Of a DNA stretch of 64,000 bases, positions 60,395 through 63,015 are shown piece by piece. The stretch lies in assembly GCF_030384885.1 (NCBI RefSeq), contig NZ_CP128613.1; one strand, written 5' to 3'. Below the pieces are notes generated by a model that saw nothing but the letters and a program-made list of their open reading frames with translations, had not been told where the DNA came from and made no database searches. The DNA comes from Escherichia coli. GTDB taxonomy: Bacteria > Pseudomonadota > Gammaproteobacteria > Enterobacterales > Enterobacteriaceae. Every line of letters begins with the position of its first letter. Positions within the stretch are counted from its first letter, which is position 1. Position numbers and translations under genes: made by a program.

Positions 60395-60425
60395 AAAGCC
60401 GACTTTAAGAGTCGGCTTTTTTTTG
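60395..60425 (+). terminator. Hairpin + T-run between upp and uraA (terminator/attenuator)
   Basis: aaagccgactttaagagtcggcttttttttg. Confidence 0.65.
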
Positions 60426-60464
60426 AGTAAAGCGCCTATAACACATAATACAGAGGATAATACT

Positions 60465-61754
60465 ATGACGCGCCGTGCTATCGGGGTGAGTGAAAGACCG
60501 CCACTTTTACAGACAATCCCGCTTAGTTTGCAACATTTGTTCGCCATGTTTGGTGCAACCGTCCTGGTGCCCGTCTTATTTCATATTAACCCGGCGACTG
60601 TACTGTTATTTAACGGTATAGGAACGCTGCTGTATCTCTTCATCTGTAAAGGGAAAATCCCGGCTTATCTTGGTTCCAGCTTTGCCTTTATTTCACCGGT
60701 ATTGTTACTGTTGCCGTTAGGGTATGAAGTCGCGCTGGGCGGCTTTATTATGTGCGGCGTGCTGTTCTGCCTGGTTTCTTTTATCGTGAAGAAAGCGGGG
60801 ACTGGCTGGCTGGACGTGCTGTTTCCGCCAGCGGCAATGGGCGCAATCGTTGCCGTCATCGGTCTGGAACTGGCGGGCGTAGCTGCCGGTATGGCGGGGT
60901 TACTCCCGGCTGAAGGGCAAACTCCAGACTCCAAAACCATCATCATCTCTATTACCACCCTGGCAGTCACGGTTTTAGGTTCCGTGCTGTTTCGTGGTTT
61001 CCTGGCAATTATCCCAATTTTAATTGGTGTGCTGGTAGGGTATGCGCTCTCTTTCGCAATGGGGATTGTCGATACCACCCCGATTATTAACGCCCACTGG
61101 TTTGCGCTGCCAACTCTCTATACGCCGCGCTTCGAGTGGTTTGCCATTCTGACTATTCTGCCAGCGGCGCTGGTGGTCATTGCCGAGCACGTAGGGCATC
61201 TGGTAGTAACGGCTAATATCGTCAAAAAAGATCTGCTACGCGATCCGGGTCTGCACCGTTCGATGTTCGCTAACGGCTTGTCGACTGTGATCTCCGGCTT
61301 CTTTGGCTCCACGCCAAACACCACCTACGGGGAAAACATTGGCGTTATGGCGATCACCCGCGTTTACAGTACCTGGGTTATCGGTGGGGCGGCGATTTTC
61401 GCTATCCTGCTTTCCTGTGTCGGTAAATTGGCTGCCGCTATCCAGATGATCCCGCTGCCGGTGATGGGCGGCGTTTCGTTGCTGCTTTATGGTGTTATCG
61501 GTGCTTCCGGTATTCGTGTTTTGATCGAATCGAAAGTGGATTACAACAAAGCACAGAACCTGATCCTGACTTCCGTGATTTTGATCATCGGTGTCAGTGG
61601 CGCGAAGGTAAACATCGGCGCGGCGGAGCTGAAAGGTATGGCGCTGGCGACCATCGTCGGTATCGGCTTAAGTTTGATCTTCAAACTGATTAGTGTGCTG
61701 CGCCCTGAAGAAGTGGTGCTGGACGCAGAAGACGCGGATATAACAGACAAATAA
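60465..61754 (+). CDS. uraA: Uracil:H+ symporter
   Basis: 429 aa from ATG 60465 ([16 protein letters not shown]...); NCS2 family. Confidence 0.95.
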
Positions 61755-61848
61755 TGTACCGACCGGGCAGTGTTGCTGCCCGGTTCAAACATCATGGGAT
61801 TCTGTGGTAAACTTCTCGCGATTTTGTGAAATCCTGGTTGAGGTATCT

Positions 61849-62550
61849 CTGAACACACCGGCACAGCTCTCTTTGCCACTTTATCTTCCTGACGACGAAA
61901 CCTTTGCAAGTTTCTGGCCGGGGGATAACTCCTCTTTACTGGCCGCGCTGCAAAACGTGCTGCGTCAGGAACATAGCGGTTACATCTATCTCTGGGCACG
62001 CGAAGGCGCGGGGCGCAGCCATCTGCTGCACGCGGCTTGCGCGGAATTGTCGCAGCGTGGCGATGCGGTGGGCTATGTCCCGCTGGATAAACGCACCTGG
62101 TTTGTTCCGGAAGTGCTCGACGGTATGGAGCATTTGTCGCTGGTCTGTATCGACAACATTGAGTGTATTGCAGGCGATGAGTTGTGGGAGATGGCGATTT
62201 TCGATCTCTACAATCGAATTCTGGAATCGGGTAAAACACGGTTGTTGATCACCGGCGATCGTCCACCGCGGCAGTTGAATCTGGGATTACCGGATCTCGC
62301 GTCGCGTCTCGACTGGGGGCAGATCTACAAATTGCAGCCACTTTCTGATGAAGATAAGTTGCAGGCGCTACAGTTACGCGCGCGTTTGCGTGGTTTTGAA
62401 CTGCCGGAAGATGTGGGGCGTTTCTTGCTGAAGCGGCTCGACAGAGAAATGCGCACGTTATTTATGACGTTGGATCAGTTGGATCGTGCGTCGATTACCG
62501 CGCAACGTAAGCTGACCATTCCGTTTGTGAAAGAGATTCTGAAACTGTAG
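61849..62550 (+). CDS. hda: DnaA-inactivating AAA+ protein Hda (non-AUG CUG start)
   Basis: Track ORF 61804..62550 (248 aa); the recalled mature Hda N-terminus ([21 protein letters not shown]) begins at CTG 61849. Confidence 0.8.
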
Positions 62551-62563
62551 ACAAGACGTTTAT

Positions 62564-62626
62564 TGTCGGATGCGCACCCATAGTATTCGTCGGCCGGATA
62601 AGACGCGGCAAGCGTCGCATCCGGCA
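62564..62626. repeat. REP elements between hda and yfgD
   Basis: tgtcggatgcgcacc and gccggataagacgcggcaagcgtcgcatccggca. Confidence 0.6.
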
Positions 62627-62655
62627 ATGTGCTTCAACTAGCGATGGAGCACTTC

Positions 62656-63015
62656 TTAACCCACGATTTCCAGCACCTGCTCCGGTGGACGACCAATTCG
62701 CGCTTTGCCATTCGCGACCACAATCGGGCGCTCCATTAGCTTCGGATTATCCACCATTGCCTGAATCAGCGCCTCTTCGCTAAGCGAACTGTCAGCCAGG
62801 TTCAGTTCTTTATAAAGATCCTCTTTCTGGCGCATCAATTCACGAGCGCTATTCATTCCCAGCATTTTCAGCAAATCGCGCAGCGTTGCCGCATCGGCGG
62901 GTGTCTCAAGGTAGAGCACCACTTCTGGCTCCACGCCGTTTTCTTTCAGCAGGTTCAGCGTTTCCCGGCTCTTTGAACAGCGTGGGTTATGGTAGATTTT
63001 TACCTGTTTGGTCAT
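62656..63015 (-). CDS. yfgD: ArsC/Spx-family protein (arsenate-reductase-like)
   Basis: 119 aa; N-terminal Cys (IYHNPRCSKSRE) typical of ArsC family. Confidence 0.8.
   Translation of the reverse strand: MTKQVKIYHNPRCSKSRETLNLLKENGVEPEVVLYLETPADAATLRDLLKMLGMNSARELMRQKEDLYKELNLADSSLSEEALIQAMVDNPKLMERPIVVANGKARIGRPPEQVLEIVG

Follow-up and report, generated by a model that had tools for sequence, protein, structure and literature searches.

The locus analyzed here raises the question of which codon initiates translation of hda. On the plus strand of the 64,000-nucleotide stretch of Escherichia coli DNA that was studied (hereafter, the window), inspection of the open reading frames revealed one that extends from 61804 to 62550 and contains 248 codons plus a stop codon. 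The original prediction for this region held that this longest frame opens with an ATG at 61804, that Hda is instead probably initiated at the non-AUG codon CTG 61849, and that automated callers over-extend the gene by 15 codons; it named ribosome profiling with initiation inhibitors and an alignment of Hda orthologs as suitable checks. On the first point it was mistaken: the codon at 61804–61806 reads GTG, and the nearest ATG (61794–61796) is out of frame. The CTG at 61849–61851 is in frame and lies exactly 15 codons 3′ of 61804, and the product comprises 248 amino acids if counted from GTG 61804 and 233 amino acids if counted from CTG 61849. The features of the region are the following:

61849–62550, plus strand: hda coding sequence as translated, with a CTG start, 233 amino acids and a TAG stop codon at 62548–62550; corresponds to the 702-nt span in RefSeq.
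61849–61851, plus strand: CTG initiation codon, based on conservation, EcoGene 3.0 and the TetRP signal.
61840–61844, plus strand: Shine-Dalgarno sequence GAGGT, with 5 nt between its GAGG core and the CTG; present in 85/85 loci.
61864–61881, plus strand: QLSLPL β-clamp-binding motif, codons 6–11, from the translation and PMC5397184.
61804–61806, plus strand: GTG that opens the longest open reading frame, almost certainly not the start codon; the homologous triplet shares the frame of the CTG in just 12/85 loci.
61805–61813, plus strand: TGgTAAACT, whose conservation suggests an extended –10 promoter element of hda.
61761–61785, plus strand: stable hairpin after the uraA stop codon, from RNA folding and intergenic context.

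The gene is located between uraA (stop codon at 61752–61754) and, on the other strand, the genes arsC/yfgD and bepA, in the order found in E. coli. The closest genome is that of E. coli 2013C-4282, which shares 99.97% identity with the window in a 3.8-kb alignment containing one gap; the flanks of hda in the window are about 96–98% identical to MG1655. In 2013C-4282 (locus L001, NZ_CP027579.1, 1650–2350), hda is annotated as a frameshifted pseudogene with its start at the CTG. This frameshift is either an assembly indel or the mark of a genuinely hda-defective strain, and the copy in the window is intact. On the other side of the gene, REP-like palindromes are found between hda and arsC at 62562–62662, with inverted repeats at 62562–62574/62616–62628 and 62593–62606/62612–62625. 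In the same interval, the Rfam family naRNA4 (RF02564) matches below threshold, with 32.9 bits versus a gathering score of 59.5.

The sequence from 61849 to 62550 is E. coli hda, which encodes the DnaA regulatory inactivator. The encoded protein is identical to that of MG1655, as are the 100 nt 5′ of the CTG, and the coding sequences share 99.1% nucleotide identity. Hda of the window is also 100% identical to residues 21–253 of crystallized E. coli Hda (PDB 5X06), a construct in which a tag is followed by MNTPAQ..., that is, by the 233-amino-acid form; because of this identity, Arg153, the Box VII arginine finger, is present together with the remaining residues of 5X06 Hda. The protein gives a full-length match to the equivalog model NF005982 of NCBIfam (476.6 bits, cutoff 268) and also matches TIGR03420 (281.4 bits, cutoff 194.8) and both Pfam domains, PF00308 (Bac_DnaA) and PF22688 (Hda_lid). 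From the identity with the characterized K-12 protein, we assume that it would be active in RIDA, i.e. in the clamp-dependent stimulation of DnaA-ATP hydrolysis. Compared with hda of E. coli K-12 (b2496, NP_416991.2, UniProt HDA_ECOLI), which is the same gene, initiated at CTG and 233 codons long, there is no difference of substance: the CTG, the Shine-Dalgarno sequence and the neighborhood upp-uraA-hda-arsC(yfgD)-bepA are all as in the window, which represents another lineage of E. coli.

Members of the Hda/HdaA family (NF005982, TIGR03420; PF00308 plus PF22688) have a common architecture, in which an N-terminal clamp-binding motif located in the first ∼10 residues is followed by a DnaA-like AAA+ module and a lid domain. 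In the protein of the window, the sequence QLSLPL, which conforms to the pattern QL[SP]LPL, occupies residues 6–11 when counted from the CTG, and the β-clamp-binding motif has been named 6-QLSLPL-11 (PMC5397184). The NF005982 match spans residues 14–248 of the long form, and that of TIGR03420 begins at the QLSLPL motif. Residues 1–13 of the 248-amino-acid form therefore match no family profile. The NF005982 profile itself has 235 positions, two more than the CTG-initiated protein. Among distant Hda representatives, the motif mostly lies 1–8 residues from the called N-terminus, which fits the CTG form, where its Q is residue 6, and not the 248-amino-acid form, where it is residue 21.

A CTG start for hda is already known and is not a novel finding: it was published in 2008 and has been built into the reference annotation. 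The passage on hda in EcoGene 3.0 (PMC3531124) describes it as the first CTG-initiated chromosomal gene of E. coli, citing Su'etsugu 2008. In tetracycline ribosome profiling (TetRP; PMC4909307), the start of hda is listed as shifted by 45 nt between the 2006 and the 2014 annotation of K-12, and manual inspection assigned the gene to class “3. 2014”, meaning a signal at the CTG site, and not to “4. multiple”. One of the checks named in the original prediction, profiling with an initiation inhibitor, is already available in published form and places the hda signal at the CTG. RefSeq annotates hda of MG1655 as 702 nt from the CTG (2618075..2618776), and the same 702 nt are annotated in E. coli VCSW5 by PGAP.

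For the alignment of orthologs, we retrieved 80 hda loci representing different species of Enterobacteriaceae and made counts over 81 Enterobacteriaceae sequences. Four further loci from other Enterobacterales (Yersinia, Erwinia, Dickeya and one 243-amino-acid group) brought the total to 85; the Edwardsiella protein P0049 was left out of the locus comparison. The homologous codon is CTG in 85/85 loci, comprising 81/81 from Enterobacteriaceae and 4/4 from other Enterobacterales, with the restriction that the compared species are phylogenetically related and the counts do not represent independent events. As a control, we examined 30 conserved internal leucine positions in the 81 Enterobacteriaceae sequences, none of which keeps a single codon (0/30). 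The comparison of these two counts indicates that the CTG is constrained as nucleotides and not as leucine. A change to ATG, GTG or TTG was seen in none of the 85 loci, although a single base would suffice. Within the species, a 41-mer centered on the CTG matches 5,423 of 5,426 complete E. coli genomes. Since the search requires an exact 28-nt word and a substitution in the CTG would lose the match, no fewer than 5,423 of these 5,426 genomes have an intact codon.

The DNA upstream of the CTG evolves differently. An in-frame stop codon occurs within the 15 upstream codons in 60/81 sequences, and within only seven codons in 27/81. In 46/81 species, there is no in-frame ATG, GTG or TTG between the nearest upstream stop codon and the CTG. 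Entropies for the three codon positions are 0.22/0.06/1.09 within the coding sequence versus 1.13/1.23/1.14 in the 15 upstream codons, and upstream indels are not multiples of three. The region 5′ of the Shine-Dalgarno sequence does not behave as coding sequence, and codon periodicity starts at the CTG. Two loci from Escherichia illustrate the variability of this region. One of them (L006) carries an in-frame stop codon at –18. The other (L007, labelled E. coli SCPM-O-B-8794) has a 1-nt insertion upstream of its position 1498 (AAATCCCTGG) that places the GTG out of frame; after this insertion, a TAA is in frame at –14, and Hda is still 99% identical. Despite its label, L007 probably belongs to another Escherichia species, because its identity with the window amounts to only 92% over 3.6 kb.

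The CTG is preceded by GAGGT in 85/85 loci, with a spacer of 5 nt after GAGG in 84/85. The calculated pairing with the 3′ end of 16S rRNA amounts to –6.9 kcal/mol at the CTG, compared with –4.0 kcal/mol at GTG 61804 and –1.7 kcal/mol at an in-frame TTG in codon 9; of 20-mers drawn at various places in the window, 3–7.4% pair at least as strongly as the sequence at the CTG. Folding shows no more RNA structure around the CTG than in shuffled controls (z = +1.25). CUG is decoded as methionine by the initiator tRNA, and the conserved GAGGT, located 5 nt upstream, very probably positions the ribosome on this codon. The alignment of orthologs agrees with ribosome profiling: CTG and GAGGT are invariant, and codon periodicity begins at the CTG. 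Together with the literature, RefSeq and the form of the protein in 5X06, it bears out the original prediction that Hda initiates at CTG 61849.

GTG 61804 forms the left end of a block, TGTGgTAAACT, that is conserved in every species compared. The pattern TGnTAnnnT occurs in 85/85 loci and the hexamer TAAACT in 73/85, and the block lies 33 to 39 nt from the CTG, depending on the locus. Because of this variable distance, we regard TGnTAAACT as conserved in the form of DNA and not of codons. The GTG, ATG or TTG triplet that ends in the TG of the block shares the reading frame of the CTG in no more than 12/85 loci. From its form, a TG followed by one base and a –10-like hexamer, TGgTAAACT would be an extended –10 promoter, and the GTG is probably conserved only because it overlaps this element. 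Such a promoter would place the transcription start near 61820, so that the GTG would be absent from the main hda mRNA. A consensus scan of 61650–61950 for promoters and terminators, which depends on a –35 match and on a U tract, made no call. It missed the putative extended –10 element because there is no good –35 region, and a hairpin at 61761–61785 because there is no U tract. This hairpin (–22.2 kcal/mol, z = –3.5 by RNA folding) begins 7 nt past the uraA stop codon and may act as a weak terminator or as a 3′ stabilizer of the uraA mRNA. Its 3′ flank, TTCAAA (61784–61789), would correspond to the –35 region of the putative promoter of hda. An Rfam scan of 61600–62750 returned nothing above the gathering score, and the conserved upstream blocks are thus not explained by any known RNA element.

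These observations bear on three other ways in which the locus could be read. Ab initio callers and the 2006 annotation of K-12 predict that Hda is translated from GTG 61804 as a protein of 248 amino acids. This codon is canonical, opens the longest open reading frame, is preceded at a distance of 4 nt by a weak GGGA (–4.0 kcal/mol), and gives rise to a protein form that is abundant in databases. Nevertheless, we consider a start at this position exceedingly unlikely, given that the triplet is in frame in so few of the loci (12/85), that stop codons interrupt the 15 upstream codons in most sequences (60/81), and that the upstream region shows no codon periodicity. Moreover, residues 1–13 fall outside the family profiles, the TetRP signal is found at the CTG site only (PMC4909307), both EcoGene and RefSeq have re-annotated the gene to the CTG, and the frame-independent conserved DNA motif accounts for the presence of the GTG. 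A start further downstream, at the TTG at 61873 (codon 9), would likewise use a canonical codon in the correct frame. This codon has no Shine-Dalgarno sequence (–1.7 kcal/mol) and is TTG in only 44/81 species, with CTG in 36 and TTA in one. Initiation there would also remove most of QLSLPL, a motif that is clamp-bound in 5X06 and, like residues 2–8, conserved at the protein level; the probability of this start is practically nil.

Both codons could also be used, with Hda made mostly from the CTG and a minor 248-amino-acid isoform made from uraA read-through transcripts in those E. coli lineages in which the GTG is in frame. Neither the window nor MG1655 has a stop codon between the GTG and the CTG, the GGGA is available to the upstream codon at –4.0 kcal/mol, and read-through is plausible because the hairpin 3′ of uraA has no U tract. 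TetRP did find genes with two starts elsewhere, but its class for hda is “3. 2014” and not “4. multiple” (PMC4909307). In addition, conservation of the extension breaks down already within Escherichia, as seen from the 1-nt frameshift in L007 and the stop codon at –18 in L006, and any 248-amino-acid isoform would therefore lack a conserved function. Overall, dual initiation appears very unlikely. The gene is almost certainly made as a 233-amino-acid protein from CUG 61849, with the 45 nt from the GTG to the CTG representing 5′ untranslated or promoter DNA of hda.

To see how far the CTG extends beyond Enterobacterales, seven distant hda genes (L089–L095) were compared. Their starts are GTG, GTG, TTG, ATG, ATG, TTG and ATG, i.e. 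0/7 are CTG and 4/7 are non-AUG, and most of these loci have an in-frame stop codon just upstream of the called start. In the sample examined, the CTG is therefore specific to Enterobacterales. The outgroup starts suggest that hda may favor weak start codons also outside this order, with the reservation that seven outgroups are too few for a conclusion. The modest additions of our analysis to the published start are thus the order-wide invariance of CTG and GAGGT, the frame-independent conservation of the GTG within a probable extended –10 element, and the lack of CTG starts among the outgroups.

The expectation that automated callers over-extend the gene by 15 codons holds for part of the records. 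The 248-amino-acid form is common in databases: its exact sequence is found on at least 1,000 contigs (UniRef C3T057_ECOLX, GenBank, Logan, ENA), beside the 233-amino-acid HDA_ECOLI. The RefSeq records examined, in contrast, use the CTG. In other Enterobacterales, called forms of 235, 238, 241 and 243 amino acids and of other lengths occur, and the GTG from which the common 235-amino-acid form of the Yersinia, Erwinia and Dickeya loci is called falls within the Shine-Dalgarno sequence (GAGGTG). For Hafnia paralvei, Hda proteins of both 233 (from the CTG) and 235 amino acids are on record (P0043/P0044), and the NCBI annotation is inconsistent. Pipelines that allow only ATG, GTG or TTG will mis-call hda, with 248 amino acids in E. 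coli and 235–243 amino acids or other lengths elsewhere in Enterobacterales. The same window contains a second over-extension due to the choice of the longest open reading frame, in uraA (60423–61754): the mechanical list of open reading frames starts this gene at TTG 60423 (443 amino acids), and the 1,290 nt given by RefSeq (429 amino acids) correspond to ATG 60465. In the case of Hda, the extra residues of the 248-amino-acid form directly precede the clamp-binding motif. Su'etsugu is said to have found in 2008 that N-terminally extended or tagged Hda behaved unlike the native protein in vitro.

Other genes of E. coli resemble hda in this respect. Both infC and pcnB have a near-cognate start codon, AUU, that is read by the initiator tRNA with low efficiency. 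The same applies to yfjD, another CTG-start gene of E. coli (EcoGene 3.0, PMC3531124). Because ab initio gene finders ignore near-cognate codons, yfjD, infC, pcnB and hda are mis-called from a nearby canonical codon. In reporters, CUG initiates at about 1–2% of the level of AUG (bioRxiv 10.1101/063800). The level of Hda expressed from the chromosome is below antibody detection, and elevated Hda delays initiation and induces SOS (PMC5397184). Since an excess of Hda has these consequences, selection may maintain the weak CUG to keep the protein scarce, a view with which the strict conservation of the codon is consistent.

The weak codon of infC serves as a sensor in the autoregulatory loop of IF3, whereas for hda limitation of dosage alone would be the role suggested by these data. 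It is also conceivable, albeit rather doubtful, that the CTG, which is accompanied by a strong and invariant Shine-Dalgarno sequence, is actively maintained to make the synthesis of Hda dependent on start-codon fidelity through discrimination by IF3, by analogy to the AUU of infC, which senses IF3. If this were true, the RIDA capacity of the cell would follow the growth rate or the condition of the translation apparatus, and the putative extended –10 element, which lies in DNA formerly annotated as coding, would be part of the same tuning.
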